Positions 6,152 to 36,698 of a stretch of DNA of 64,000 nucleotides are shown one piece after another. The notes under the pieces were generated by a model. That model saw only the letters and a program-made list of their open reading frames with translations. It had not been told where the DNA came from and ran no database searches. Position 1 is the first letter of the stretch, and every line of letters starts with the position of its first letter. The stretch spans positions 337 through 64,336 of the forward strand of contig JBDKSM010000035.1 of assembly GCA_039680665.1 (NCBI GenBank), in the 5' to 3' direction. The position numbers and the translations under genes are program-made. This DNA comes from Syntrophaceae bacterium. Lineage in GTDB: Bacteria > Desulfobacterota > Desulfomonilia > UBA1062.

Positions 6152-7426
6152 TCAATCCCGTTCGTCCACGACGGCGGCATCTCCCTTGAACGCAGCTCCC
6201 GGAACGATACGCACACTCATGCGAACACCCGTGCCGGCATGGATGGCCCTTTCCAATTTCTCGACAAAGGCCTTTTGGGTACGCATCTCGTCAAAGAAGA
6301 GATTGTCTCCCACCTCGAGCAACACATCGGCCTTTTCATAGGATCCCTCGCGGTAGATATGCAGCTGGGTGCGGGTCTCCGCCCCTTCGTGTTTGAGAAT
6401 TTCACGAATGCGTTCAGGCGTCACACCCATGCCTTTGATCTTGATGGCATCATCCGTACGGCCGTAGATTTCGGCCAGACGGATATGCGTGCGCCCGCAC
6501 GGACATGCCCCATCCATCAGCATGGTGATGTCGCCGGTGCGATAACGGATCAGAGGAAAGGCCTCACGCGCCAGCGTCGTGATCACGAGCTCACCCTTAA
6601 CCCCGGACGGCAAAATCTGTCCGCTGGACGGATCGATGACCTCGGGGATAAAGAAGTCCTCGTACAGGTGCAGTCCCTCGTGCGCGCCGCACTCGCCCGC
6701 GATGCCCGGACCGAGCACCACGCTCGATCCGTAGCTGTTGAAAACCTCGACGCCCAGATCAGCGAAACGCTGCCTTACCTTGGGGCTCAGACGCTCGGCG
6801 CCCAGGATGGCGCGCCGCAGCCGCAAACCCTTGGGATTAATTCCCAGTTCGCCCAGCTTATCGAGCAGGATCAGGGCATAGCTCGGCATACAGGCGATCA
6901 CCGAGGTCAGGTAATCGCGCATGATGGTCACCTGCTCGGCCGTATTGCCGATATCGGCCGGTATGACCGAGGCACCGATGAGCTCCGCGGCGGCATGAAA
7001 GCCGAATCCACCGGTCATCAACCCGTAACGGAAGGCAATCTGGATCACGTCATCACGCGTGATGCCGGCGCAGATAAGGAAGCGCGCCACCAGTCTGGCC
7101 CAGGCCTTCAGGTCATTGGCGGTATGCCCCGTCACAATGGGCTTGCGCGCCTGACCCGATGAGGTATGGATGCGCACCACCTCCCTTAAAGGCACGGCGA
7201 ACATGTCATAGGGATAGCACTGCTCGATCTCCTGGCGGGTCGTGAACGGTAGCAAACTGATATCGGAAAGGGTTTTGACGTCCTCGGGCAATATGCCCGC
7301 CGCATCTAGGGCGCGGCGGTAATGGGCCACGTTCAGATAGGCCCGGTTCAACGTGGATTGAAGCCGCTCAAGCTGCAGCACCTTGAGCTCTTCCCTCGGC
7401 ATGGTTTCATAGCGCTCTTCCAGCAT
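6152..7426 (-). CDS. Phenylacetate-CoA ligase family (PaaK / coenzyme F390 synthetase-like adenylating enzyme), 425 aa
   Basis: Start trimmed to MLEERYETMPREELKVLQLERLQ... (ATG at 7424-7426, RBS AGGGAGGGAAGG). PaaK-family signature regions (…HTSSG…; …YGSS…) are present. Last gene of the liv-like operon. Confidence 0.85.
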   Translation of the reverse strand: MLEERYETMPREELKVLQLERLQSTLNRAYLNVAHYRRALDAAGILPEDVKTLSDISLLPFTTRQEIEQCYPYDMFAVPLREVVRIHTSSGQARKPIVTGHTANDLKAWARLVARFLICAGITRDDVIQIAFRYGLMTGGFGFHAAAELIGASVIPADIGNTAEQVTIMRDYLTSVIACMPSYALILLDKLGELGINPKGLRLRRAILGAERLSPKVRQRFADLGVEVFNSYGSSVVLGPGIAGECGAHEGLHLYEDFFIPEVIDPSSGQILPSGVKGELVITTLAREAFPLIRYRTGDITMLMDGACPCGRTHIRLAEIYGRTDDAIKIKGMGVTPERIREILKHEGAETRTQLHIYREGSYEKADVLLEVGDNLFFDEMRTQKAFVEKLERAIHAGTGVRMSVRIVPGAAFKGDAAVVDERD

Positions 7427-7439
7427 CGCCTTCCCTCCC

Positions 7440-8207
7440 TCATTCCTCGCTTCCCAGGTAAGCCTCCAGCACCCGCGGGTCCTTACGGACGATCTGCGGG
7501 GCACCCGCGGTCAGCACGCGGCCTTCGGCCATGACAATAATACGCTGACAAATGTCCATGATCAAATTCATATCGTGTTCAATGATGACTACCGTGAGAT
7601 CGAGCTCAGACTTGAGGCGCACGATAAGCTCGGAAAGTTTCTCGGTCTCCTTGGGATTCATGCCGGCGGCAGGTTCGTCCAGGAATATGACGGTCGGCTT
7701 GGCGGCCAGGGCCCGCGCTATCTCCACACGGCGCTGATTGCCGTAGGATAGATTGACGGCTTGCTCATCGGCCATGTCCTGCAGGCCCAGGCGTGTCAAC
7801 AACCTATGCGCTTCATTTCGGAGATTGCGTTCTTCGACACGCTTGGCCGGGGTATTGAACAGGCTGCGGCCGAAACCGGCCTTGAGTCTGCTATGGCCGC
7901 CCACCATCACATTTTCAAGCACGCTCATATCGCGAAAGATTTCCAGATTCTGGAAGGTGCGCGCCATGCCGAGCCGGACCCGGCGGTGAGGACGCAGCCG
8001 GGTGATGTCGCGGCCATGCAACAGGATACGCCCATCATCCGGCGTAAAAAGTCCTGTCAGGACATTGAAGAGCGTGGTCTTGCCCGCGCCGTTCGGTCCG
8101 ATGACACCCAGGATCTCGCCCTGGATAACCTCGAGCGATACATCGCTCAGGGCCTGGATGCCCATGAAATGCTTGCTTAAGGATGCTGCCTGCAGCACTA
8201 CTCCCAC
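7440..8207 (-). CDS. ABC transporter ATP-binding protein, LivG-like
   Basis: Walker A GPNGAGKTT and a LivG-type N-terminus; 13-nt gap to the downstream paaK-like gene. Confidence 0.85.
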   Translation of the reverse strand: MGVVLQAASLSKHFMGIQALSDVSLEVIQGEILGVIGPNGAGKTTLFNVLTGLFTPDDGRILLHGRDITRLRPHRRVRLGMARTFQNLEIFRDMSVLENVMVGGHSRLKAGFGRSLFNTPAKRVEERNLRNEAHRLLTRLGLQDMADEQAVNLSYGNQRRVEIARALAAKPTVIFLDEPAAGMNPKETEKLSELIVRLKSELDLTVVIIEHDMNLIMDICQRIIVMAEGRVLTAGAPQIVRKDPRVLEAYLGSEE

Positions 8208-10647: not shown

Positions 10648-11775
10648 TTATTTGACCTTTACGTATTTGCCTTTGACCACCTTGAAGATGTACACGCCCT
10701 GCTTGACCACATCGCCGTTGTTATCGAAGCTCAACTTGCCGGTCACGCCGTCGAAATCCTTGACCGTGTCGAGATAGCCTCTCATCTGGTCCGGGGCGCC
10801 GCCCTTGGTGGCAATGGCCGTGGACACCAGGCGCGTCATGTCATAGGTGATAGCCGCGAACATGGCGTTGTTGGGTTCCTTGGTGTCGGCCTTGACGATC
10901 TTGTAATAGGCATCCTTGAACTTTTTGTTGGTGGGGGTGTTGTAATCCTCGTCATACTCGCTGCAGTTGATATGGCCTTCGGAGGCCTTGCCGGCCAGCT
11001 CGATGTACTTGGGCGCCATGTCACCGAAGACGCCCATGGATTGGGCCGTGATGCCCATGCGGCGGGCCTGGGAGATAGCGGGAGCGGTCTCCTGCAGATA
11101 GCCGGGGATAAAGAGCAGGTCAAAGGGCTTCTGCTTGAGCTTGGTCAGCTGGGCCGAGAAGTCGCGGTCGCCGACCATGAAGCTCTCCGTGCTGATTACA
11201 GGAATGCCGAGTTCAGCGAAACACTTGGTGAAGAGATCATTGCAGCCCTTGCCATAAGGCTCGTTGCTGTACAGGATGACCGGTTTGGTCGTCTTCAGGC
11301 TTTCCTTGGCGTATTTGGTGAGGCTTGCGGCCTGCTTGTCAATGCGGGTACAGCCGCGGTACACATATTCGCCCGCATCTGAGATCTTGGGCGAAGTGCC
11401 GTTGGGGGTGACGATGACGATCTTATCTCGCTGGGCCAAAGGCGCCACGGCCAACACGTTGCCGCTCATCATCGGGCCGATGATGACCTTGACCTTGTCC
11501 ATGGAGACCAGTTTCTGATAAGCGGCCACCGAGGCAGGGGCGCTGTCCTTCTCATCCTCGAAGATCACCTTGAGTTGTTTGCCGTTTATGCCGCCCGCGG
11601 CGTTGATTTCCTTGACCGCGATCTCGACACCGCGCTTGGCGGGCAGCCCGTCCGATGCGCCCTGCGAGAGCCTCAAAATGGCCCCGATCTTGATCTCCTC
11701 GGCAGCCCGTGCCTCGCTCAAACCTAAGCCCAATACCACCATTGCGACCATCACCAACAACCATAGTCTCTGCAT
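10648..11775 (-). CDS. Periplasmic substrate-binding protein of the ABC importer (LivK/Leu-Ile-Val-binding family fold), 375 aa
   Basis: Trimmed to MQRLWLLVMVAMVVLGLGLSEARA (signal peptide) with RBS GGAAGGAGGAAGGG. The ORF-track N-terminal extension is rejected. Confidence 0.8.
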   Translation of the reverse strand: MQRLWLLVMVAMVVLGLGLSEARAAEEIKIGAILRLSQGASDGLPAKRGVEIAVKEINAAGGINGKQLKVIFEDEKDSAPASVAAYQKLVSMDKVKVIIGPMMSGNVLAVAPLAQRDKIVIVTPNGTSPKISDAGEYVYRGCTRIDKQAASLTKYAKESLKTTKPVILYSNEPYGKGCNDLFTKCFAELGIPVISTESFMVGDRDFSAQLTKLKQKPFDLLFIPGYLQETAPAISQARRMGITAQSMGVFGDMAPKYIELAGKASEGHINCSEYDEDYNTPTNKKFKDAYYKIVKADTKEPNNAMFAAITYDMTRLVSTAIATKGGAPDQMRGYLDTVKDFDGVTGKLSFDNNGDVVKQGVYIFKVVKGKYVKVK

Positions 11776-11815
11776 CCCTTCCTCCTTCCCAAATTTCAAT
11801 TCGTATCTCGTTGTT

Positions 11816-11849
11816 GATAAAAAAGGCCATGGGGATTGCCCATGGCCTT
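11816..11849 (-). terminator. Intrinsic terminator/attenuator hairpin in the 5' leader of the liv-like/paaK operon
   Basis: Minus strand: AAGGCCATGGG-caatc-CCCATGGCCTT followed by TTTTTTATC, ending ~40 nt upstream of the SBP start codon. A candidate promoter (TTGACA-18-GATAAA) lies ~150 nt further upstream on the minus strand. Confidence 0.55.
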
Positions 11850-12093
11850 GTGTGTCTCTCTCGCGCACCCGGCCTATGGGCACCGTTTTTTCCGATAATA
11901 ATAAACGTAGCGATAGGCCTGAATGCATGCGTAGTTTCTCATAGCAGCGTTTATCCTTCGGGGAGGCCCTGGCTGTCAAGCGAAAAAGCAGGAAGGGATT
12001 AAAGGCGCTTCGTATACCAATCCGTAAAACGGATGTCTCTCAGGACATCAGGGCAACCAAGCCGGATGAGTCCTGGAAAGATACGAAGGCCGG

Positions 12094-13299
12094 CTACCGT
12101 AAAACCTGGCTGATATCATCGAGCAGGCGTTCGAGCCGGTTATCCGTGGCAAGTACGCTGGGCAGGGAAACGGTCACTTCCAGCCGGTCGGCGCAGCCTG
12201 TCAGGACCACGAAAGACGGGATACCGTCCACCCGCGGCGGTATCAAAAAAACCGTATCGGCCTGAAAACCGGCCCCGCGAAAATTGTCCCGATTGAAACG
12301 GCCCAGGTTGGAAAGCAGCGTCGAGGAGCTATACGTGCCCTTATAATGCCAGCTCAGGGTGATCAGTTTCAACCCGATCTGGAGCAAGGCGATCGGGATC
12401 ATGTCCACCACGGTTCCGCCCTCAAAGAGCATGCAATCATATTTCTCGTCCAGCTGCCGTTTGACCTCGCGGGCAATATCTTCGGGGCTGTCCTCAGGGG
12501 TTACCTCGACATAGAGGGCCATGGACATATTGTTGGTGGTCCGCAGACCGGGCTGCCGTTGTCTCAGATCCACGGGGATCGCCAGCATGACCGGACCAGA
12601 ACCATACTGCCGGGCGGAATGCGCCAGGGCCCAGCCGACCTTTCCCAGAACCTTGGAGAAGCTCCCCGTAAAGGTGAGCCTTTTCCAGCGCGTGCCCGCT
12701 TGGAACCCTCGCGCTCGCCCGGTGGGCGCGATGCTGTTGACCGGCGGCATTATGCGGGTGCGGTCGGTGAATTGGCGCAGAAAAGTGACCATACTGGGAG
12801 GATCTTCAAGCGAACCCAACGGCTCTTCATCGCGCAGGACCCGGAAGATATCCTCGGCCCAGTACACCGTGCCCATGCCGTCCATGGCGCCGTGGTTGGA
12901 CCTGAACACCAGGCGTGTCACCGGGCCGCTTTCCAGGTACAAGACCTCACAGGTAGGCCCGCGGTATGGCAGACCCGCCATCAGAAAGGGGGCGTTCTCC
13001 GAGCCGCGACCGTCCCAGGTAACGTCCTTCAGGCAGCGGACAGGCGGTGTCAGGCCTGAATCCAGCCAATAACAACCGCGCAAGGCGCCCCTCAAGATCA
13101 GCCGACTGCCCGGATTGGCCTCTGAGGCCTTGGCGACGGCGTCTTCCAAGCGGCCCTGGTCAATAACGCCCTGCCCCTCAACCACCACCTGGTTGGCATA
13201 CGGGGGGGCGACCGCATCGGCGGCCAGCCACAAACGTTCCACAATCGGCAAAGGTCTTTGGAATCGTGTGCCCATATTGGGTTTCTTATCGGCAGACAA
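12094..13299 (-). CDS. Stand-alone condensation-domain-like acyltransferase (401 aa), paralog of the N-terminal domain of the NRPS at 21231..25175
   Basis: C1-like motif PLPIVERLWL and an active-site variant SNHGAMDG (HxxxDG). Alignable along its full length with NRPS residues 1-400 (e.g. GKVGWALA, PVDLR..QPGLR, NLGR/NLGH blocks). Confidence 0.7.
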   Translation of the reverse strand: MSADKKPNMGTRFQRPLPIVERLWLAADAVAPPYANQVVVEGQGVIDQGRLEDAVAKASEANPGSRLILRGALRGCYWLDSGLTPPVRCLKDVTWDGRGSENAPFLMAGLPYRGPTCEVLYLESGPVTRLVFRSNHGAMDGMGTVYWAEDIFRVLRDEEPLGSLEDPPSMVTFLRQFTDRTRIMPPVNSIAPTGRARGFQAGTRWKRLTFTGSFSKVLGKVGWALAHSARQYGSGPVMLAIPVDLRQRQPGLRTTNNMSMALYVEVTPEDSPEDIAREVKRQLDEKYDCMLFEGGTVVDMIPIALLQIGLKLITLSWHYKGTYSSSTLLSNLGRFNRDNFRGAGFQADTVFLIPPRVDGIPSFVVLTGCADRLEVTVSLPSVLATDNRLERLLDDISQVLR

Positions 13300-15375: not shown

Positions 15376-16059
15376 ATGCGCATCAGATGGTTGCCTATCC
15401 CGGACGGGGATGCTACACAAGACAATACTATGGTTGTGCTGAAGAAAAAACAGAGCTATGGCCCGGATGTCGTGCTGATCGACGGACGCCTTGTGGAAAA
15501 GACCTACCGCCACCGGATCTGGCCGGTGCGCCTGATAGGCCGCGTGCTCATAGCCTGGGAGGCGTTCATCTACCACAAGCTCTCCGGCCTGTCCGGCATC
15601 CCGAGGCTTGTTGATCGACCGGATCGCCAAACGATCCTGACCACCTACATGGGAGGGGAGAACCTGCGGGAAACTTTAGCCCGGCCCGACGCCGCGTATT
15701 TCGAGAAGATGGCCGGCATCATCAAGAGCATGCACGCCCGCGGCGTCATCCACCTGGATCTGCGCAACCGCCGCAATTACGGCCGCAATGAAGCCGGGGA
15801 ACCCTACCTGGTCGATTTTGCTTCCGCGCTCTACATACCGTGGGACGGAACCCTGCGCAAACTTATAGCCCGGTTGGACTGGCTCGGTTTCGTCAAGGTC
15901 AAGGCCAAGCTCGCTCCGGAGCTGCTCAGCACCCGCGAGCATCATCGTTATCGCCTCGGGGAAACCTTGAGCGCCGTATGGCTCCCGACCAAGACCTTCA
16001 ACGCGCTCAAGGAGCTTATCAGGTTTGTAAAGAGGTCTTTTCCCGGTCGAGGTCTTTAA
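15376..16059 (+). CDS. RIO/Kdo-kinase-like small protein kinase-fold protein
   Basis: Catalytic-loop-like VIHLDLRNRRN and metal-binding-like LVDFAS. Start may be the downstream ATG (MVVLKKK, 15430). Confidence 0.45.
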   Translation: MRIRWLPIPDGDATQDNTMVVLKKKQSYGPDVVLIDGRLVEKTYRHRIWPVRLIGRVLIAWEAFIYHKLSGLSGIPRLVDRPDRQTILTTYMGGENLRETLARPDAAYFEKMAGIIKSMHARGVIHLDLRNRRNYGRNEAGEPYLVDFASALYIPWDGTLRKLIARLDWLGFVKVKAKLAPELLSTREHHRYRLGETLSAVWLPTKTFNALKELIRFVKRSFPGRGL

Positions 16060-18216: not shown

Positions 18217-20490
18217 CTATTTGAGCACGAAGGTCCGGCTGGCGCCCTCGAAGGCATGCAGCGTGTGGTCTTGGGTTTTGTAATCGCCATGGTAACGGAT
18301 GACATAGCGTCCCGGTTCAGCGTCAGAGGTGTTCCATACGATGGTGGCCGTGGAGCTGCGAGAATCACCCCGCTCCCAGATGAATTTGGTGTCCGGGTCC
18401 CAATCGCGGCGCACGATCTGATAGCCGCCGCCGGTTTCCTGCTCGACGGTCAGGAAGGTGTCCATGGAACGGCGGTTGTTGCGGGGGTTCGCCCCCTGGA
18501 AGGTCGCCTTGACCTTATCGCCGATGCTATAGGAGGCAGCTGGCTGGCTGATCACCTGGCCGTACGTTTTCCCGCTCGGCGCCTCATCGTATGGCATCGC
18601 GGTTGAGAAATCGAATTGATCGTTGCGTAAATCGAGCGGAAAAGGACCGGATGCCACAGGCGTACCGGCGAGGATGGCATCGCAGAGCTTGGCGTATTCC
18701 TGCTGGAAGGCTTCCAGCTCGTGCGGGCCGAACATGGTGCCGGCGCCTTCATAGCCCTGCTTCCCATATTCCTCGCCGGTTGCCAGGTAGGAGGCATAGG
18801 TATTGGACAATCCGGCGATCACGGCATGATCGACCTCACGATCCTGAAAACGCGAGAGCAGCGTGTTCTTAACGCGTCGGCCCGCCATGGTGGTAATCTC
18901 GGTGGGCTGGGCCGCGATGACAAGGTTGCCGATCTTGAGCACCTGCACCGGCAGCACCTGGGGCATCAAGGGGATGAATTTGACCAGGTTGAACGTCATC
19001 AGTCCCGTGGGCAGGATCACCGGTTTGACCCCCTGGCACTCGATATAATCCTTGGAAAGGGTGGTGGGCCAGATAAGGCCGATGGCGCCCGGCAAGAGCG
19101 TGGCCAGCAGCGTTTCCTGGATATCGGTGCCGCTGTTCCAGTCAATGGCGCCCACGTCATCTCTGGTTACGCCTTCGCTGAAGAGTGGGTACGGCGTGGG
19201 GTTGTCACAAGGGCTGCCGTAGGAATAGGAGGCCCCCATGCCGGAGGGACAGGTCGAGCAACCGGCCGCGTCAACCGCAAGAGAGCGCATGTCAACGAAC
19301 TTATGGCGGTAATCAACCGAACCGTGCACGGGTTGCATAACGCCCTGATAGAGCTCAAGGGCCTTGCGGTACTGCAGGGTGGCTTCAAGTTTGAGCACGA
19401 GGTTTTCCTCAATATCGGCCTCGCCCTTGGCCTCATCCCAGGGGAAGCCCTGGCGCGCGATCTCGCCTTCAGGGTCGGTGATTCCGTAGGCCTTCAGGGC
19501 TTTCACGGCGTCGGACTGCGAGAACGCATGCGTGGTGAAAGGCACGTTGGGCGTGACATCCCCGGAGTTGCTCTGCGCGAAGGCGGCCACGAACGTGAGG
19601 GGATCGGTATAATCGCCGCCCATATGCTTCTCGAACAAATAGGCGGCATGTCCCTTGCTGTCGCCGCTGATGAGATGATTGGACGGACCGATGCAATCGG
19701 GATGGACGGCGAACCAGTTGAGCATGCCGAGCCCCACTTCCCGGCCCTCGGCATCGTACCCCACGAATTTGAGCACGGTCATGGTGGTGTCGATGTTGCC
19801 GTCATAGGCGGCGCGCTCGGCCGCCGGATTGTTGTCATAGGCAACGGATGAACGGTTCCAGCCTGCAGCGGCAAGGTTGCCTTGGGCGATATAGATCCTG
19901 CCCGGCCTCAGGTTGGCATGGGCACGTTTGATGGAAGCGAAGATGCCGTCCGTCACGGCATCGAAGCTGTCCTGGATGAAACCCAGATTGGGTACGTTGT
20001 AGAGAAAATAATGCGAGAACCCCGCCACGGAAGAGTGGCTGTGGGTAGCGCTTAAGCAGACATTGTCGTTATTGTAATAGGGGCTGAGCTCGGGGTCGGC
20101 GGCCAGCCGACGGGCGATCTCCTGCTTGACGGATTGGCACATGGCCCATGTATCGGCATTCACAAAAACCACCCGTCTGGCAGGGGTTGCGGGATCGGCG
20201 ATGATAAAGCTTCGCGCCCACAGACGCATGGAAATTCCGGCGGTCTTCTGATCTGAAAAGGCGAAACCGCCCATAGTCACTTCCGAGGCCGGCCCGGTGA
20301 TATCATAGATGCCCACACCGATGAGGTAACGATCTCCATTGGCCGCATTGTCGGAGGTGGACCGTGTATCGCTGCTCCTTATCCCTGAATCTTGAGATGT
20401 ATGAGAATCCCCGGATTGGCATCCATTTAAGCCCAGCACCATGATCGCAATCAGCAGTAGTCCGAATCTTCCCGCAAGACCCCGCTTCAT
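18217..20490 (-). CDS. Neutral/alkaline ceramidase family amidohydrolase, predicted lipoprotein (757 aa)
   Basis: Lipobox LGLNGC followed by a Ser/Thr/Asp-rich linker. Full-length collinearity with neutral ceramidases: YLIGVGIYDITGP, SATHSHS, MLNWFAVHP, AAFAQSNSGDV, TFLTVE, IRYHGDYK. Confidence 0.85.
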   Translation of the reverse strand: MKRGLAGRFGLLLIAIMVLGLNGCQSGDSHTSQDSGIRSSDTRSTSDNAANGDRYLIGVGIYDITGPASEVTMGGFAFSDQKTAGISMRLWARSFIIADPATPARRVVFVNADTWAMCQSVKQEIARRLAADPELSPYYNNDNVCLSATHSHSSVAGFSHYFLYNVPNLGFIQDSFDAVTDGIFASIKRAHANLRPGRIYIAQGNLAAAGWNRSSVAYDNNPAAERAAYDGNIDTTMTVLKFVGYDAEGREVGLGMLNWFAVHPDCIGPSNHLISGDSKGHAAYLFEKHMGGDYTDPLTFVAAFAQSNSGDVTPNVPFTTHAFSQSDAVKALKAYGITDPEGEIARQGFPWDEAKGEADIEENLVLKLEATLQYRKALELYQGVMQPVHGSVDYRHKFVDMRSLAVDAAGCSTCPSGMGASYSYGSPCDNPTPYPLFSEGVTRDDVGAIDWNSGTDIQETLLATLLPGAIGLIWPTTLSKDYIECQGVKPVILPTGLMTFNLVKFIPLMPQVLPVQVLKIGNLVIAAQPTEITTMAGRRVKNTLLSRFQDREVDHAVIAGLSNTYASYLATGEEYGKQGYEGAGTMFGPHELEAFQQEYAKLCDAILAGTPVASGPFPLDLRNDQFDFSTAMPYDEAPSGKTYGQVISQPAASYSIGDKVKATFQGANPRNNRRSMDTFLTVEQETGGGYQIVRRDWDPDTKFIWERGDSRSSTATIVWNTSDAEPGRYVIRYHGDYKTQDHTLHAFEGASRTFVLK

Positions 20491-20521: not shown

Positions 20522-21193
20522 CTATGCCATTTTATACCCTGACGGCAGACTCATAAAGCTGAAAACCAAGGTGTTTATCACGATGCTTCCTACCAGGAAT
20601 TCGAAGTCCGGCGGATACGGCCCGATTGGCCGCATGAGCCTGCCGCGAAAGCCTTGACCGTGCCATGTCAGTCCGGCGTCCATAAAATCAAGGTATACGC
20701 CGATCTGGGGGAAAAAGGCCTTGAATGCGGCCTCCTTGGCTGAAAAAAGCCGTACCAGACGCAGCGCATCCTGACCCACCCAGGCGCGTTCCTCATCCAT
20801 GCCGACCACCTGGCTGAACTCTTGATCGAACCGCTCCGGAATGGATTCAAGATCAATGCCGATCCCGGCGGCATGGTCCCGTGAACAAACGGCACAAACA
20901 GCGATCCCGGCCGTATGGGTGATGGAGCCGACATAGCCTTCCGGCCAGAGCGGTTCATACAAAGGACCCTGAAGGATGGGCGGCGGCGGGCTGAAACCGA
21001 GTTGCTTGAGGGCGGCATGCGCGGCGGCGCGACCGAGCACGAACTCGTCCCGGCGTTTGAGCGCCATGCGTGGACTTAAGAGCCGTGCCTCAGCAGGATC
21101 GAGGGAAAATCCCGCCGCTCCGTGCTTGGTCCTAACGGCAAAACCCACATACCCCTGGAATGGCGATCTGATCATGGCCGTCGGGAGCGACAA
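20522..21193 (-). CDS. Sfp/EntD-type 4'-phosphopantetheinyl transferase
   Basis: Motifs GIGIDLE and FSAKEAAFKA; 37 nt downstream of the NRPS stop, on the same strand. Confidence 0.8.
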   Translation of the reverse strand: MSLPTAMIRSPFQGYVGFAVRTKHGAAGFSLDPAEARLLSPRMALKRRDEFVLGRAAAHAALKQLGFSPPPPILQGPLYEPLWPEGYVGSITHTAGIAVCAVCSRDHAAGIGIDLESIPERFDQEFSQVVGMDEERAWVGQDALRLVRLFSAKEAAFKAFFPQIGVYLDFMDAGLTWHGQGFRGRLMRPIGPYPPDFEFLVGSIVINTLVFSFMSLPSGYKMA

Positions 21194-21230: not shown

Positions 21231-24200
21231 TCATGCCTCCATGGTCATCCGCGGCGTCGCTGACTGTCTCAGGCCGGAAACTTTGCCCGCTTCGGCGGCA
21301 TCAGAGCGCCACGCCTCTTCAAGGGCCTTGTCCGCAACTCCGGTTTCTCCCTCTCCCAGATAGCAGGCAAACGCATCGATCGTCATATATTTGTAGATCA
21401 TCATCAGGGGTATATCGCGCACAAGCTCCTGTTTCAAGCGGTTCTTGAGCATGATGACCTTGAGTGAATCACCACCCAGATCGAAGAAATTATCATGGAT
21501 GCCCACCCGCTCAAGGCCGAGTACTTCCGCCCACAGACGTGCGATTACTGTCTGGAGCTCGTTCTGCGGGGCCGTATACTCACCCGTGGCGGCGTCCGTG
21601 ATCTTGTAGGCATTCAGGACCTGCCGGTCGAGCTTGCCGTTGGTTGTGAGCGGCAACCGCTCCAGAAAGACGAAGTGCTTGGGGATCATATATTCCGGCA
21701 GGTAGCCCTGGAGGAATTCCGTGAGGATGCTTTTCAGGTTTACGTCTGCGGCGCCGCGGCCCTCTACGGTAGTGTCGTTATCTTCCGCGCGGCACACGAC
21801 ACAAGCGAGCAGGTGTTTGCCGGAGCCGCGCTCGTCTGAGGCGGCGATTACCGCCGCCTCGGCCACGGTGGGGTTCTTGAGCAGGGCGGCCTCGATCTCT
21901 CCCAGCTCAATGCGATGCCCATGGATCTTGACCTGGAAGTCCTCGCGGCCTAAAAACTCGATATTCCCATCCGGCAGCCACCGGCCGAGATCTCCGGTTT
22001 TATAGAGGCGTTCCCCGCTCTCGGGGTGGACTATGAAGCGTTGGCCGGTCTTGTCCGGATCATTCCAGTACCCCAGCGCCAGACCGATGCCGCCGATATG
22101 GAGTTCCCCGGCCACCCAGAGCGGACATGGATTGAGGTTCGCGTCCAGAACGTAGAAACGTTGATTCGCCATCGGCTTGCCGTACGGTATGCTGACCCAT
22201 TCTTTCTGCACCTCGGTAACGGGAAACAGGATGGACCAGATCGAGGCTTCGGTGGCGCCCCCTAAGCTGATGATTTCGGCTCCGGCATTCTGCGCGCGGA
22301 TACGCGCCGGCAGGCTTACCGGGATCCAGTCGCCGCTCAGCATGACCAGCCGCAAACAATCCGGTATGGCCTGAGGCGTCTGCTCGGCATAATCGACCAG
22401 CAGTTGCATCAAGGCCGGCACCGTGTTCCAGAGGGTGACCGAGTGGCGTAAGAGCAGGTCCGACCAGTGGGCGGGGTCCTGCCTGTCCTGGGCATCGGGG
22501 ATGACTACGGCCCCGCCGGCGGCCAGCAGGCCGAAGACATCGTAGACCGACAGATCGAAATTCAAGTTGGATAGCGCCAGAGTGCGATCTTCAGGTCCCA
22601 CCCCGAAGCGCTGGTTGATATCCCGGATGGTGTTGACCGCTCCTTGATGATCAATCATGACCCCCTTGGGACTGCCGGTCGAACCGGAGGTGAAAATAAC
22701 GTAGGCCAGATCGGTCGCCTGCTGGACCGAAGCGGGAGACAAATCATCCACGGCGGGCAGATCGTTCCGGTCGACGCACAGACACGTCCATTCGGTCAGC
22801 CAGGTCAGCTGCGCGTGGATACGGGTCTGGGTCAGGACAACCTTGACCCTGGTCTCTTCCAGCAGGTAGCGCAGGCGCTCCCGCGGTAAGCCGGGATCGA
22901 GCGGTACGTAAGCCGCGCCGGAGAAGAGCACCCCCATCACGCCCACGATCTGCTCCCACCCCTTTTCCATGAGCACCGCGACACAGGTGTTGGGCTCGGC
23001 GCCATGTACGCGCAAGTAGTGCCCGAGACGCATGGCCCTGTTCAACAATTCGCCGTAGCTTAAGCTGCGCCCGGGGGTGATCACGGCCGGCGCCTCCGGA
23101 TGCTGCAAAGCCTGCTCCAGGAACAGGGTGTGCAGCAGGTTGCTGGAAAAAGGCGCACGGGTTGCATTGACCTCATCATATAGGGCCTGATGCTCAACGG
23201 GTATGGCCGGGCAGCGGCACTGGTCCCAGCAGACTTCAGGAGAAGCAAGCACTTCCAGGTAGCGGTGATAGGACGCGAACATATCCTGAGCTACGCCCGA
23301 CTCAAAGACCTCATCTATACTGTCCCAGGTGAAGACCAGGTGTCCATCCAGCTCGCATGCCCGGTGATTAAGCCAGATCTGCGGCGCATCCGAGAGCTTG
23401 TCCGGCAACGAACCACCAGACCGCTCAGACACATCCTCCAAATCCGCGTACAGCATAACGGGGATTGGGGGAACGGGGCTTAACCCACTGATACGACCGA
23501 AGCCCGGAAGGGTCTGAAGCTCGTCCAAGAACCGCTCGTCAAGTTTAGTCTTGAGCTCTTCGGAGAGCAGCTGGGTGCACAGCGCAAAATCGTTGGCCGC
23601 CAGAGCATCCACCGGCAGGAGGGTCGTCACGCTGACGGGCTGGCCTGACGGTGCATCAGGGCCTTCGGCCGAAAGGCCTGGTCTCTGGCTCACACTCATG
23701 CCGATGGTGAAGCGCGGGGTCTTGCTCCAACGGGCCAGAACGCCGGAAAAGGCGCTGGCGATAACGGCTGTGGGAGTGACTCCCAGGCTGCATGCCCGGT
23801 CCTTAATCAATTGCCACTTTTCTGCATCCAGGCGCGCACTGCGGCGGGTCACCCGCGGCGGGGTTGCCGCAGAGGGGTTGGCGACCAAGGGCAGATCGGG
23901 GACGGGCGGCATGTTGGGCAGGCGTTCCTGCCAGAATGTCGAGGGCTCCGAAGGCGGCTTCGCTGGGCCGGCCTGGAGAGACTTCGCATCTTCAGGCGCC
24001 AAGGCCCGGCCGATATCCGCCAGCAAACGCTCAAAACGTCCTGTGTTGCCGAGTTGACGAGACACCGCGATGGTTAATTCTTCGCAGCCCTGACAACCGG
24101 CCAGCGCGACAAAAACCGCCGCCCGATCCAGGGGGGGGGGGACGAAGAAACAGGTCTCGGCACGGAAACTGTCGGCGCAAAAGGCTTGTGTATCGATATG

Positions 24201-25175
24201 ACCCAGATTGGAAATCATGGCGGAAGCATTATACCGGCCCCGCCGATAATTCAGTTTCGAAAGCATGGTAAACCCAAGACCGAGGAGCTTGAGCGGCGTC
24301 ACTTCAATGAATTCCGTACCGACATACGGCATGCAATCCGTCTTATTGTCGAGCTGTTTGAGAATATCATGGGTTATGGATTCAGGGCTCGATGCCTGCG
24401 TGATATCTACATACAGGGCGGTCGTCAGATTGCTGGTACACCGCAGGCCCGGTTGGTGAGATCGCAAGTCCACTGGCACGATCAAGCGCACCAGTCCATC
24501 ACCGTTTCTCCATGCGGATTGCGCCAACGCCCATCCTACCTTGCCTAATAAGACGGGCAGCGCACCCTTAAACGTCAGGCGGCGCCACATGATACCGTCC
24601 TGACCATCGGGCCGGGACATACCCGTGGGGGCGATGGCACGGTCGGCGTAGACATCACGGGTCTGCTGCGTGATGCTGTTCATGATCTGTTTGTCGGTGA
24701 TGGCCCATTGCGTGCCCAGGAACGGAGCGCCCTGCATGATCCGGAAAACATCTTCGGCCCAGGTTATCACCCCGCGGCCATCCATCACGCCATGGCTGGC
24801 CCGGAAAATAATGCGCGGCGTAGACCCCTCAACCCACAGCACTTCGCAGGTAGGTCCGCTATGGGGCAATCGGTCATGCAGGAAGGGCGCATTTTCAGGG
24901 CCGTACCCGTCCCATGCCTCTCCGGAGACGACCCTGACGCAAGGCGCCCGACCGGAATCCACCCAGCGCGAACCCCGCAGAGACCCTTTCAATACTAAGC
25001 GCGTCCCCGGATTAAGCTCGGAAGCCTTTCCTACCGCCGCGGCCAGGTGACCCACATCCAGGCTACCGCGGCCTTCCAAGACCATTTGGACGACAAAAGG
25101 CGAGGAGGCGCTGTCGATGCTCAGCCAGGACCGTTCAATATACGAAAGAGGTCGATGCAAATTGTTCCTAGTCAT
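21231..25175 (-). CDS. Single-module NRPS-like protein (~1314 aa): condensation-like domain (aa 1-400, active-site variant SHGVMDG), partial second condensation-like region (aa ~415-660), adenylation domain, peptidyl-carrier domain; no TE/R domain
   Basis: Start trimmed to MTRNNLHRPLSYIERSWL (ATG 25173-25175 with RBS GGAGGA). A-domain cores LSYGELL (A1), GAAYVPLDP (A2), LAYVIFTSGSTGSPKG (A3), NFDLSVYDVF (A4), GELHIGGIGLALGYW (A6), YKTGDL (A7), GREDFQVKIHGHRIELGEIE (A8), NGKLDR (A10). PCP motif FFDLGGDSLKVIML. Confidence 0.9.
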   Translation of the reverse strand: MTRNNLHRPLSYIERSWLSIDSASSPFVVQMVLEGRGSLDVGHLAAAVGKASELNPGTRLVLKGSLRGSRWVDSGRAPCVRVVSGEAWDGYGPENAPFLHDRLPHSGPTCEVLWVEGSTPRIIFRASHGVMDGRGVITWAEDVFRIMQGAPFLGTQWAITDKQIMNSITQQTRDVYADRAIAPTGMSRPDGQDGIMWRRLTFKGALPVLLGKVGWALAQSAWRNGDGLVRLIVPVDLRSHQPGLRCTSNLTTALYVDITQASSPESITHDILKQLDNKTDCMPYVGTEFIEVTPLKLLGLGFTMLSKLNYRRGRYNASAMISNLGHIDTQAFCADSFRAETCFFVPPPLDRAAVFVALAGCQGCEELTIAVSRQLGNTGRFERLLADIGRALAPEDAKSLQAGPAKPPSEPSTFWQERLPNMPPVPDLPLVANPSAATPPRVTRRSARLDAEKWQLIKDRACSLGVTPTAVIASAFSGVLARWSKTPRFTIGMSVSQRPGLSAEGPDAPSGQPVSVTTLLPVDALAANDFALCTQLLSEELKTKLDERFLDELQTLPGFGRISGLSPVPPIPVMLYADLEDVSERSGGSLPDKLSDAPQIWLNHRACELDGHLVFTWDSIDEVFESGVAQDMFASYHRYLEVLASPEVCWDQCRCPAIPVEHQALYDEVNATRAPFSSNLLHTLFLEQALQHPEAPAVITPGRSLSYGELLNRAMRLGHYLRVHGAEPNTCVAVLMEKGWEQIVGVMGVLFSGAAYVPLDPGLPRERLRYLLEETRVKVVLTQTRIHAQLTWLTEWTCLCVDRNDLPAVDDLSPASVQQATDLAYVIFTSGSTGSPKGVMIDHQGAVNTIRDINQRFGVGPEDRTLALSNLNFDLSVYDVFGLLAAGGAVVIPDAQDRQDPAHWSDLLLRHSVTLWNTVPALMQLLVDYAEQTPQAIPDCLRLVMLSGDWIPVSLPARIRAQNAGAEIISLGGATEASIWSILFPVTEVQKEWVSIPYGKPMANQRFYVLDANLNPCPLWVAGELHIGGIGLALGYWNDPDKTGQRFIVHPESGERLYKTGDLGRWLPDGNIEFLGREDFQVKIHGHRIELGEIEAALLKNPTVAEAAVIAASDERGSGKHLLACVVCRAEDNDTTVEGRGAADVNLKSILTEFLQGYLPEYMIPKHFVFLERLPLTTNGKLDRQVLNAYKITDAATGEYTAPQNELQTVIARLWAEVLGLERVGIHDNFFDLGGDSLKVIMLKNRLKQELVRDIPLMMIYKYMTIDAFACYLGEGETGVADKALEEAWRSDAAEAGKVSGLRQSATPRMTMEA
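24131..24141. repeat. G11 (C11 on coding strand) homopolymer inside the NRPS CDS, encoding PPP in ...FFVPPPLDR...
   Basis: Direct count: gcccgatcca + 11 G + acgaag. Confidence 0.9.
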
Positions 25176-25506
25176 ATGTTCCTCCATACTGTCGGATCTC
25201 CTCAGGTGCTGATGGCAAGCATGTCACAAGCTCCTTGCCGATCGCCCGTGGCGGAAATAAATTTCATTTACATGAAAACTATTTCCCATCCACCATTCTA
25301 CGCCACTACGCCAAAACACCTCCAGTCCTCTGTTTGCGCCCGCAATTCGATCGCAACGCGACCGCGATGCTCATTTATGCTTGTTTTTCTGCAACACGCA
25401 TGCCATCTAACGAACCCTACCTACCGGTCATTTATCAGCCGCACTTCTTCCCAAGGCGCCATGATAACCTTGACCGGCGCTCGATTTTCACGTAGTCAAA
25501 GGCCTC

Positions 25507-26508
25507 ATGGACCTGATACCCTTTCCACGGATGGGCTCCATCCACACCCTTACCCTGCCTTTGCCGGGGTTTGCCGATTTGATCTGCTCCAATGTCTTCA
25601 TGCTGGGCAACGGTCCGCTCACCCTCATCGATACCGGACCGAAGTTCCCCGGATCATTTGAAAGCCTTGAGCGGCAGCTTAAGAGCATTGGTTTTGCATG
25701 GCGTGACGTGGAGCGTATCCTGATCACGCATGGCCATATCGATCATTTCGGACTGGTCGCCACAATCAGACAGGCCGCCGGCCATAACATCCCCTGCTAT
25801 ATCCATACGGATGACAGATGGCGGCTTTCGCGCGGCTTTATCGAGCAGGACATGTGGAGCGAGGAAGCGGAAAAATTCAGCGCCTTTGCCGGGATACCGG
25901 CGCCTACGGTCGAGCAGATGAAGCGGCGCTCAGGTTTCTTCAAAGTCCTCTGCGATCCGGTCGATGACGCGCTGCCCATGCAGGATGGCGATGTCTTCCG
26001 GGGCTCGGACTTTGAGCTCAAGCTTATCCATACCCCCGGCCATTCACCGGGCAGCTGCTGCCTGTTCGAGCAAAAGACCAGCGTGCTTTTCAGCGGCGAT
26101 ACCCTCATCAAGCATATCACCCCCAATCCCTTCCATGAGACCAATCGCTCACGCCTGAGTGATCCAACGTATAAGAGCTTGAAGGCTTTCCGACGCTCGC
26201 TCCATATACTCGAACAGCTCCCGGTCAGCGCCACCTTCCCTGCCCATGGCGAGTACGTCCCCGACCTAAAGGCACTCATTGAAGGCTATCGCTCCCACCA
26301 TAACCAACGCAGCGCGCAGATCCGCCAGGATCTCATGGGCTCTCCGCTCACCTTGCATGAGCTCGTGCGAAAGGTATTCCCAAATATCAAGGACGCCGAA
26401 GTTTTTCTGGGCGTTTCCGAGGTCTTCGTTCACCTGGAACTGTTGCTCGAAGGGGGTCAAGCTATCCTGGTTGATGTTGGTCCGCCGGCGGTTTTCCAGG
26501 CCGTCTAA
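25507..26508 (+). CDS. MBL-fold metallo-hydrolase (glyoxalase II-like)
   Basis: HxHxDH motif ITHGHIDHFG; divergently transcribed from the NRPS gene across a 330-nt intergenic region. Confidence 0.8.
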   Translation: MDLIPFPRMGSIHTLTLPLPGFADLICSNVFMLGNGPLTLIDTGPKFPGSFESLERQLKSIGFAWRDVERILITHGHIDHFGLVATIRQAAGHNIPCYIHTDDRWRLSRGFIEQDMWSEEAEKFSAFAGIPAPTVEQMKRRSGFFKVLCDPVDDALPMQDGDVFRGSDFELKLIHTPGHSPGSCCLFEQKTSVLFSGDTLIKHITPNPFHETNRSRLSDPTYKSLKAFRRSLHILEQLPVSATFPAHGEYVPDLKALIEGYRSHHNQRSAQIRQDLMGSPLTLHELVRKVFPNIKDAEVFLGVSEVFVHLELLLEGGQAILVDVGPPAVFQAV

Positions 26509-26519
26509 GGCCATGAACG

Positions 26520-28374
26520 CTAAAGCGCAATGTCCACCTGGTAGGCGTGGCTGTCAACGGTGCGCGACATCGGATAAGCCGCTTTTTCCAGGACCTTGAG
26601 CATGGACTGGTTGTCGCGCCAGACGATCGCCCGCACGATTTCATAGGCAAGCGTGCGGCCGATGGCGACCATGGACTCGAATAGGTAGGTCCCTATACCC
26701 AGACGTTGCCAGGCCGGGTCCACCATGGCAGCGAACTCGCACACCCGCCGACCGCCGCTCTCTTCGTCCGGAGCGATATGCGCCACGGCCACGATGCGTT
26801 CCTGCTTGTCGCCTAAGGCCTGGACAACCAGGGCCATGGATTTCGTGTAATCGACATTCACCAGATACTGCGCCTGTTTATGGTGCAATGAGGCCATATG
26901 ACGCAGAAAGCGATGGAACCGGTCGTCCTTGCTCATGGCATAGAACAGATTCTGTATGGCGCGCTCGTCGGTCACCTTGACCGGCCGTATATGCACCTCC
27001 CTGTCGCCGAAGGCCCGGATCTGTTCGTGAGCGCTCGGGTAACAGGCCTCCGCAGGCGGCAGGGCCTGGTCTTCGTAGAGGTATTTTTTCCCCTTGGCTT
27101 CTTCGAGCAGCCATGGTCTGAATTTGGGGTGGGCAATCGTGATGAGCGCCAGCGCCCGTTCGCGGATGGATTTTCCGAACAGGTTGACGCACCCGTATTC
27201 GGTGACCACATAATTGACATCGCTCTGGGTGGTGACGATCCCGATCCGACTGTCGGTAAATTCCGGGACGATGCGGGAGAAACGGCCGTCACGCGAGGTC
27301 GAGCGCAGCGCGATGATGCCCTTGCCGCCGAGGGTGAACATCGCCGTGCGGTTGAAAACCGCATGTCCCAAGGCCCCGAAGAACGACGTGGGCTCGCCGA
27401 GGCCGACGCATGACTGCCCGGTCAGGTCGATCTCGACCGCTCCGTTGATGGCGATGAAGCGTTCATGGGAAAGAATCCGGGCCGGGTCGCTGATAGAGGA
27501 CAGGGCAAGGATTTCGACATCACGATTTTCGTGTACATACTCGAAGACCTTCTGGCTGCCGATGCACAAGCTTGAGGTGACGGCTGGGGCCTCAACCACA
27601 GCTGCCCCTGTGGCTAGCGCCCCGGCGGCGGCAAGATCGACGATGCGATCGGTGATGATCTCCGAATGGATACGCAAGTTTTGCTTGTCCTTCAAAAATT
27701 GCATGGCGGCGTCGGGAATCCGGCCGAACCCCACCTGAATAGTGGATCCGTCCTCGACCAAACGGGCCACGTTGCGTCCCACCGCAAGGGTCTCGGGATC
27801 AGGCTCCTCCTGACGGAAGGTCACGAGCGGCTCGTCGTGCTCCACGATATAATCGATATCCGTTAGCGGGATCAAACTATCGCCCCGGGTGATGGGCATA
27901 TGCCGGTTGACCTGGGCGATCACTCTTTCGGCCTTCCCAACGATGGCGCGCATGATATCCACCATAATGCCCAGACTGGGCATACCCTCCTCGTTGGGCG
28001 GGCTCAGTTGGATGATGGCGGTGTTGATCCTGATGTAGCCTTCATCAAACAGCTTGAACATGCCCAATGTGGAGAGAGGTAGATGGTCGGCCTGACCTTC
28101 CGCAAAGGCCGATCTCATCGCCGGGGCGACGAAGAAGGTCTGTATCCGGAAACGGGAGCCGAAATCACCGCCATAATCCGCATAGCTCCGTAAGGGCACG
28201 GAGGTATACACGTGGACATCGCTCAGGTGCATGTTATCGAAGATGAGGTGTTTGGCCAGATACTGAGGTTCTCCGCATCCGGACTCGACATACACGCATG
28301 ACCCCGGCTGGATAAGCTCCAGCAGGCGCTCAACGGTAGTTATCTTGCTCGTATACTCCTCTTTCCACATCATA
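26520..28374 (-). CDS. Acetyl-CoA hydrolase/transferase (ACH) family protein fused to a C-terminal GNAT acetyltransferase domain
   Basis: N-terminal two ACH lobes; C-terminal ~170 aa with the GNAT core (…QRLGIGTYLFES…). Start trimmed to ATGATG at 28374. The track start at 28415 is a TTG. Confidence 0.75.
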
Positions 28375-28622
28375 GCGGGCCCATTATCTCTACCACTGCG
28401 TTTTTCGTATTTCAAACCAAGGCCAACACCCTATCGTCATGTCGCGGCTGAGAAATTAACCGATCACCGCGATGATCTTCCAGGGCTATTGATCTCGGAG
28501 GCGCCAATTATCCGTGAAAATGCGGGGCGATTCCATTGGACAAAAGCCTGCAAGCCATGGCACAGTAAGATGCCCCCTAAGGGACAAATCCTTGTCAGGG
28601 CCGGGGAGCACGAACCATTGAG

Positions 28623-34965: not shown

Positions 34966-35040
34966 GCGGGAATAACTCAGTGGTAGAGTGTAACCTTGCC
35001 AAGGTTAAAGTCGCGGGTTCGAATCCCGTTTCCCGCTCCA
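34966..35040 (+). tRNA. tRNA-Gly (anticodon GCC), CCA encoded
   Basis: Cloverleaf GCGGGAA/TTCCCGC acceptor stem, anticodon loop TTGCCAA, T-loop GGTTCGAATCC. Confidence 0.9.
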
Positions 35041-36625: not shown

Positions 36626-36698
36626 GGGCCCTTAGCTCAATTGGTAGAGCCACCGGCTCATAACCGGTAGGTCCCTGGTTCGATTCCAGGAGGGCCCA
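36626..36698 (+). tRNA. tRNA-Met (anticodon CAU; elongator-type, or possibly tRNA-Ile2 if lysidinylated), CCA not encoded
   Basis: Acceptor GGGCCCT/AGGGCCC with G1:C72 paired (not an initiator), anticodon loop CTCATAA. Confidence 0.85.

Follow-up and report, generated by a model that had tools for sequence, protein, structure and literature searches.

In a 64,000-nucleotide stretch of DNA from a Syntrophaceae bacterium (contig JBDKSM010000035.1; hereafter the window), a short minus-strand gene, the orphan, encodes a stand-alone protein resembling the N-terminal condensation-like domain of a nonribosomal peptide synthetase (NRPS) encoded elsewhere in the same window. Sequence comparisons indicate that the orphan is probably an ancient paralogue of the domain fused to the N-terminus of this NRPS, and not a detached piece of its cluster. 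Both belong to a family, here called Cx, which is overwhelmingly stand-alone and independent of NRPSs. By analogy with better known enzymes of the same fold, we propose, with a probability of about 0.5, that the orphan product may act as an independent His/Asp-dependent acyl or aminoacyl transferase, using a thioester donor and an amine or hydroxyl acceptor.

The orphan gene and its paralogue in the NRPS

The initial annotation had described the orphan as a paralogue of the condensation-like domain of the NRPS, aligning over its full length with NRPS residues 1-400. This description proved accurate. By BLASTP, the orphan and the 1318-aa NRPS share 45% identical and 63% positive positions in an alignment of 391 columns that contains three gaps (E 1e-111); it pairs residues 11-400 of the 401-aa open reading frame (ORF), nearly the whole protein, with NRPS residues 8-396. 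AlphaFold2 models of the two displayed the same fold, with an identical order of secondary-structure elements. The sequences NHGAMDG in the orphan and SHGVMDG in the NRPS, presented as variants of one active-site motif, share the same alignment column, and the catalytic His and Asp are retained in both copies.

As to the origin of the pair, either an old duplication or a split cluster had been suggested. The Kimura distance between the two window copies is 0.96, and each of them lies only 0.65-0.70 from stand-alone proteins of other organisms. Since each copy is nearer to foreign stand-alone proteins than to its partner, the distances favour an old duplication over a split cluster. In a neighbour-joining tree the two copies were found on sister sub-branches within a 31-leaf clade, and UPGMA placed both within one 54-member cluster; clade and cluster consist chiefly of singletons or pairs. 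Clade members from outside the genus occur in mutually unrelated contexts, without an NRPS. The nearest relative of the orphan outside the genus (P0010, 56% identity) comes last in a tandem array of four Cx copies adjoining an AMP-binding enzyme.

The ORF as listed (12094..13299, minus strand) starts from a TTG at 13299. Because the orthologues begin at the same Met, the true gene is probably the slightly shorter one given in Table 1, the product of which matches a 393-aa NCBI protein of a Syntrophaceae metagenome-assembled genome (MAG; P0001) with 100% identity. The ORF is unbroken in four assemblies, namely the window and three related loci (L007, L008 and L009). Against the three orthologues, the dN/dS of the orphan is 0.14-0.18, comparable to that of the NRPS Cx domain (0.14-0.18), of the adenylation-thiolation (A-T) region of the NRPS (0.15) and of rnb (0.10-0.15), which indicates purifying selection on the orphan. 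All near-invariant positions of the Cx family are kept, the catalytic His and Asp included, and the AlphaFold2 model is confident over its full length (pLDDT 95.6). The orphan product is a soluble, intact and selectively maintained Cx member.

Fold, motif and distribution of the Cx family

In the model, two lobes resembling chloramphenicol acetyltransferase form a V-shaped pseudo-dimer, which at the level of the fold places the orphan in the condensation superfamily. Its best structural match was AzeD (8s6l; listed figure 34.9, rmsd 2.9 Å over 368 residues), followed by the condensation (C) domain of ObiF1 (28.9), CDA C1 (28.0), PchE (27.5), PapA5 (25.6) and WS/DGAT (22.3), and VibH appeared at rank 41 (20.8). 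The orphan is therefore closer to AzeD than to modular C domains, and no specific structural or sequence similarity to VibH was found. Sequence searches were far less informative. With Pfam the orphan gave no match to Condensation (PF00668) and only a PapA_C match (PF16911) of 19.9 bits, below the cut-off of 30; it matched no NCBIfam family; and phmmer and family-profile hmmsearch against all PDB sequences, 8s6l included, returned nothing at E <= 10.

The HHxxxDG motif, with its second His and its Asp at the lobe interface, is present in the orphan with the first His replaced by Asn. Over 282 Cx members the consensus is HHAVMDG. The second His occurs in 281 of them and the Asp in all 282, while the first position is filled by H in 204, N in 41 and S in 15.

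Stand-alone enzymes of the condensation fold are already known (VibH, PapA5, SgcC5, AzeD, OaaC), and the orphan comes from a divergent, unannotated family with a gene cassette of its own. AzeD, from azetidomonamide biosynthesis in Pseudomonas aeruginosa, is a dehydratase that acts on a free intermediate and the founder of a C_standalone clade, defined by the recovery of 35 AzeD homologues with BLAST/HMM, about one third of which vary the first motif His (bioRxiv 10.64898/2026.07.17.738954, a July 2026 preprint). The orphan is 15% identical to AzeD, without a match at sequence or profile level, and our phmmer and profile hmmsearch runs against PDB sequences did not recover it as an AzeD homologue. 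The two also differ in that AzeD sits in an NRPS cluster, whereas Cx genes adjoin adenylating enzymes, tandem paralogues and membrane proteins, and in that the Cx consensus is the canonical HHxxxDG, unlike AzeD. The PapA5/PapA family (1q9j, 6aef) is mycobacterial and thus of another phylum, and no polyketide synthase (PKS) partner is present in the window. A PapA-like context is seen at other Cx loci, through a CapK-like ligase (29 loci), RND (13) and HlyD (15) proteins, but this association with an acyl-activating enzyme and exporter is absent for the orphan. VibH (1l5a), the vibriobactin amide synthase, is likewise a stand-alone condensation fold and offers a conceptual model of how an acyl group could pass from its carrier to a soluble amine. 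OaaC (C_FAA), of a fatty-acid-amide pathway of gut bacteria, is likewise a free-standing C enzyme with a non-canonical first motif residue and works with a separate adenylating enzyme and a carrier protein; its motif is (D/H)HxxxDS, as against xHxxMDG in Cx, and it falls among starter C domains (PMC13310621). Starter (lipo-initiation) C domains such as RzmA-Cs (7c1h) have no sequence-level relation to Cx, and the window NRPS differs from starter-C systems by an extra half heterocyclization (Cy) domain between its Cx and adenylation (A) domains. Our literature search on COG4908, stand-alone condensation enzymes and Smithella NRPSs found no description of the Cx family.

Cx proteins are widespread in uncultured Smithella/Syntrophia, Spirochaetota and Syntrophomonas. 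A word-indexed search gave 158 matches, and the best 120 of these 158 were all of ~348-457 aa (Syntrophaceae, Smithella, Spirochaetes and other MAGs). Scanning the GTDB species representatives yielded 267 relatives, from which 71 loci were kept, and ORF and BLAST analysis identified 156 Cx proteins in 77 loci. In the 71 non-redundant loci, two to four Cx genes, usually in tandem, were present in 39 and a single one in 32. Unbiased clustering of neighbour proteins revealed the recurrent partners: a CapK/PaaK-like ligase (29 loci), GNAT-like proteins (29), LPG_synthase_TM (27), an AAT/Ntn-hydrolase-like protein (24), HlyD (15), RND (13) and GH3 (7), PGA_cap also being a recurrent neighbour. The usual cassette lies on one strand and reads CapK/PaaK-like ligase, AAT/Ntn-hydrolase-like, LPG_synthase_TM, PGA_cap, two GNAT-like genes and two to four Cx genes. 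We found no description of this CapK-to-Cx cassette in the literature searched. Examples are provided by L037 (127-12401), L043, L045, L036, L041 and L054, from Spirochaetota, Smithella, Syntrophomonas and other MAGs. The MAG bearing L009 additionally contains a complete cassette (L015) whose Cx genes form a tandem of three, hence at least five Cx paralogues in this lineage.

Other arrangements were observed. In Hahellaceae, Oleispira and Bermanella MAGs (L077, 911-11284; L067, L076, L078), an unknown gene, a GH3-family acyl-acid amido synthetase, two unknown genes, HlyD, RND and Cx follow one another, and delta-proteobacterial and Myxococcota MAGs carry a related GH3 and Cx set (L013, L055, L063). 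In Smithella (L002, 2183-9541; also L018, L022, L038), an array of three Cx genes diverges from a gene set of lipid type comprising a FabA/ApeI-like dehydratase, an acyl carrier protein (ACP), two radical-SAM proteins, two ketosynthases, a 4HBT thioesterase and PlsY; the opposite flank carries a CapK-like ligase, an RND/MMPL transporter and LPG_synthase_TM.

Forms of Cx fused to an NRPS were found in two groups only, the window with L007, L008 and L009, and actinobacterial Cx-A-T proteins. The latter are ~1000 aa long, lack a thioesterase (TE) domain, are 32-35% identical to the orphan and occur on Streptomyces and Rhodococcus megaplasmids (L005, 11998-15072; L006, 11980-14967). Their neighbours, a fatty-acid CoA ligase (FadD), KAS III, an ACP malonyltransferase, a formyltransferase and an MMPL transporter, suggest that their products are lipo-amino-acids. 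Taken over the family, the recurrent adenylating partners and the fusions to A-T support acyl or aminoacyl transfer as the job of Cx proteins.

The NRPS chimera and the genomic neighbourhood

The NRPS of the window is a chimera (Table 1). Its complete Cx domain is followed by a linker and the C-terminal lobe of a vestigial Cy domain, an A domain with its AMP-binding_C domain and a peptidyl carrier protein (PCP) domain, after which comes a poorly conserved tail of ~40 aa. Pfam detected no TE or reductase (R) domain, as anticipated by the initial annotation, which had called this NRPS TE-less. In an AlphaFold model of residues 1-690, residues 401-690 were of low confidence, and we assigned this region from phmmer searches of the PDB and alignments of Cy domains. 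Pfam gave a weak Condensation match at residues 416-504 to profile positions 195-283. With phmmer, NRPS residues ~416-680 and the A domain matched in one continuous stretch the Cy-A-T and C-A-T structures of BmdB, FmoA3, PchE and EntF from their residue ~195-284 onwards, the nearest database relatives of the middle region being Cy domains with DxxxxD. Compared with 30 Cy domains, this region is devoid of the whole N-lobe (43 conserved columns) and of DxxxxD, and keeps 47 of 88 conserved C-lobe columns. The invariant GDFTS is lost (it is also variable in the three orthologues), as is the Asp of LDHQ, and dN/dS rises to 0.28-0.29, roughly double the value for the remaining NRPS. A word-indexed search with the middle region found no homologues. 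Cx and Cy are joined at the hinge between the two lobes of the C domain.

This architecture is rare. When 1.84 billion representatives were searched exhaustively by phmmer, with NRPS residues 1-690 as the query, a single 50%-identity cluster (P0142, 78% identity) had the same architecture, the other strong matches being either stand-alone proteins of ~400 aa (residues 10-400) or giant NRPSs (residues 416-690 only). Read by hand, with a numbering that we take to be that of GrsA and that was checked for internal consistency, the specificity code of the A domain is DLYNMSLIWK. This code is among the listed Cys-activating signatures (PMC12283262).

Table 1. Features of the window, with positions counted from its first nucleotide.
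Feature	Position	Strand	Remarks
Orphan stand-alone Cx gene	12094..13275	-	393 aa; likely start ATG 13275
Orphan active-site motif NHGAMDG	12877..12897	-	H128 and D132 in 393-aa numbering
NRPS	21231..25187	-	1318 aa; Cx, vestigial Cy C-lobe, A and PCP
Fused complete Cx domain (NRPS residues 1-400)	23988..25187	-	AlphaFold2 pLDDT ~95 over residues 10-400
Fused-Cx motif SHGVMDG	24777..24797	-	shares alignment column with NHGAMDG
Linker and vestigial Cy C-terminal lobe (NRPS residues 401-680)	23148..23987	-	Pfam, phmmer, Cy alignment
NRPS adenylation domain	21588..23147	-	Pfam AMP-binding E 2e-85; TIGR01733 440 bits
NRPS PCP (residues 1215-1275)	21363..21545	-	PP-binding E 3e-14
Sfp-type phosphopantetheinyl transferase	20522..21193	-	4PPT_N and ACPS domains
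Kinase-like gene	15376..16059	+	breaks any NRPS-to-Cx transcript
Terminator-like hairpin	11823..11849	-	11-bp stem, 7 G-C pairs, then TTTTTAT
ABC substrate-binding ORF	10648-11979	-	over-extended from TTG 11979; true start ~11774 after GGAGG site
PaaK-like ligase	6152..7504		TIGR02155, 390 bits
Neutral/alkaline ceramidase	18217-20490	-	Pfam E 6e-145
MBL-fold hydrolase	25507-26508	+	divergent from NRPS
Acetyl-CoA hydrolase/transferase-GNAT fusion	26520-28415	-	Pat-like GNAT, C-terminal
tRNA gene	34966-35037	+	
tRNA gene	36626-36698	+	

The initial annotation had placed the two Cx copies some 8 kb apart, with rnb and other genes in between, and the measured distance is 7.9 kb. The intervening genes encode the phosphopantetheinyl transferase (PPTase), the neutral ceramidase, an FMN reductase, a short-chain dehydrogenase/reductase (SDR), a LapA-like ORF, the plus-strand kinase-like protein and rnb. 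The rnb stop and the ATG of the orphan, which has a weak ribosome-binding site, are just 59 nt apart. On its other side, the hairpin of Table 1 lies within a ~320-nt spacer (11775-12093) between the orphan stop and the true start of the ABC substrate-binding gene. An Rfam scan of the window detected only the two tRNAs, with nothing near the orphan or the spacer. This layout suggests that the orphan would be transcribed with or just after rnb, apart from both the NRPS operon and the downstream ABC/PaaK operon.

The order NRPS, PPTase, (ceramidase), FMN reductase, (SDR), LapA-like, kinase-like, rnb, Cx, ABC is conserved in L007, L008 and L009, so that both copies are kept together in all four related assemblies. 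These are close relatives (dS 0.3-0.6; rnb 88-95% identical), and the conserved gene order therefore says little on function. The PPTase, directly downstream of the NRPS, is the sole neighbour with an obvious NRPS role kept in all four.

Several other genes lie around the NRPS. The ceramidase gene immediately follows the NRPS-PPTase pair; L008 has it, L007 retains only a 43-aa remnant of it, and L009 lacks it. We rejected it as a clue to the product, as this presence/absence polymorphism does not fit a core cluster gene. The metallo-β-lactamase (MBL)-fold hydrolase has its best NCBIfam match to the Strvi_7410 family and a weak match to the solanimycin hydrolase SolJ. The genes for this hydrolase, the CoA-transferase-GNAT fusion (two genes upstream of the NRPS) and an old yellow enzyme (OYE) are all missing in L009. 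Only a 56-aa remnant of the hydrolase is left there, and a role for it in releasing the NRPS thioester was rejected on this ground. Homologues of the CoA-transferase-GNAT fusion, 31% identical, are found two genes from a singleton Cx in two Smithella MAGs (L058, 12344-13835; L059, 12228-14066), which may be coincidence. The rest of the 32-64 kb part of the window is housekeeping (lysS, proS, hisS, aspS, relA/spoT, ispG, queF, dus, pilins, MotA/B-like) and contains no further NRPS or PKS parts.

Proposed function and its alternatives

The mechanism that we envisage for the orphan is modelled on the xHxxxDG enzymes of the same fold (C domains, PapA5, WS/DGAT, BAHD). A thioester-activated acyl or aminoacyl group, carried by CoA or an acyl-carrier protein and supplied by an adenylating enzyme, would enter at one face, and the acceptor amine or hydroxyl at the opposite face. 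His128, held by Asp132, would position or deprotonate the nucleophile, and an amide or ester would be released. As the orphan is a singleton, transcribed apart from the NRPS and ABC/PaaK operons, it probably depends on other sources for its donor and acceptor.

Several observations weigh against this proposal. For this uncharacterised family we infer chemistry, substrates and independence from the NRPS alike. Cx is tied to C domains by fold and motif only: of 117 Cx members, four touch PapA_C (three, weakly) or Condensation (one, E 0.004), all below the Pfam cut-offs, and hhalign of the Cx family against the Cy-domain alignment was not significant. The best structural match, AzeD, is a dehydratase on a free substrate and not an acyltransferase. 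The Cx tree was obtained by neighbour-joining without support values, and the promoter and terminator assignments are consensus matches only. Finally, the NRPS lies ~6-8 kb from the orphan in all four genomes with this orphan subtype, which leaves room for functional coupling.

Such coupling underlies the proposal of the initial annotation that the orphan provides the release step for the TE-less NRPS, transferring in trans, in the manner of VibH, the PCP-bound product onto a soluble amine or alcohol as part of a split cluster. Off-loading from carrier proteins by stand-alone C enzymes is established (VibH, OaaC). The absence of a TE or R domain, the position of the orphan and the NRPS Cx in one small sub-clade, the ~6-8 kb spacing in all four assemblies and the catalytic His and Asp kept in both copies would all fit this scheme. 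We nevertheless consider it unlikely, because the orphan is neither within the cluster nor co-transcribed with it, rnb and an opposite-strand gene intervening, and because the family nearly always occurs without an NRPS. On the occurrence of the stand-alone gene without the NRPS, which bears directly on this point, the evidence is divided: this is the rule at Cx loci as a whole, but the present subtype, known from four genomes, is always accompanied by the NRPS. About as improbable is that the orphan is a tailoring enzyme like AzeD, performing dehydration or other His acid/base chemistry on a free small molecule. The structural match with AzeD speaks for it, but sequence identity is only 15% with no sequence-level link, the family consensus is the canonical HHxxxDG (204/282), and the repeated linkage and fusion of Cx with adenylating enzymes and PCP point to acyl transfer.

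A partnership with the downstream Liv-type ABC importer and PaaK-like ligase, by which an imported aryl or acyl acid would be conjugated after CoA activation, appears less likely still. These genes are adjacent to the orphan on the same strand, the arrangement is conserved in L007, L008 and L009, and elsewhere Cx typically adjoins a distantly related CapK/PaaK-like ligase. However, the spacer with its strong terminator-like hairpin lies in between, the window ligase is a typical PaaK relative, 23-30% identical and not orthologous to the cassette ligases, and the neighbourhood is no longer found around P0009 (63% identity) or other members of the clade. It was on the hairpin and the lack of orthology that we rejected this coupling as the main explanation. 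That the orphan is a decaying, functionless duplicate is very improbable. Its position as a singleton amid housekeeping genes, the change of the first motif His to Asn and the weak ribosome-binding site could be read in this way, but the ORF is intact in four assemblies with dN/dS at 0.14-0.18, the catalytic residues and near-invariant positions are retained, the full-length fold is confident, and Asn at the first motif position is common in the family (41/282).

A wider picture can also be drawn, which we put forward tentatively and regard as possible rather than probable. The tandem Cx sets of Syntrophia, Spirochaetota and Syntrophomonas, together with CapK or GH3 enzymes, GNAT-like proteins, an MprF-type membrane domain and exporters, might build an acylated or aminoacylated envelope molecule without classical NRPS modules. 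The window NRPS might then be the outcome of a rare natural fusion, an entire Cx gene having taken the place of a Cy N-lobe precisely at the inter-lobe hinge, and the orphan could serve as a further, unattached catalyst for the same cysteinyl or acyl-cysteinyl product.

On present evidence, the orphan should stay out of predictions of the cluster boundary and product. Cx is a condensation-fold family missed by Pfam, NCBIfam and NaPDoS-type classifiers, so that genome mining under-counts such enzymes in uncultured anaerobes, and the tandem-Cx cassette is a tractable target for finding new envelope lipids or conjugates. A natural NRPS with one and a half C domains is also relevant to engineering that cuts C domains between their lobes. 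If Cx was indeed fused at the hinge of a Cy domain, this would tie the Cx family to thioester chemistry and provide a natural precedent for NRPS recombination inside C domains.
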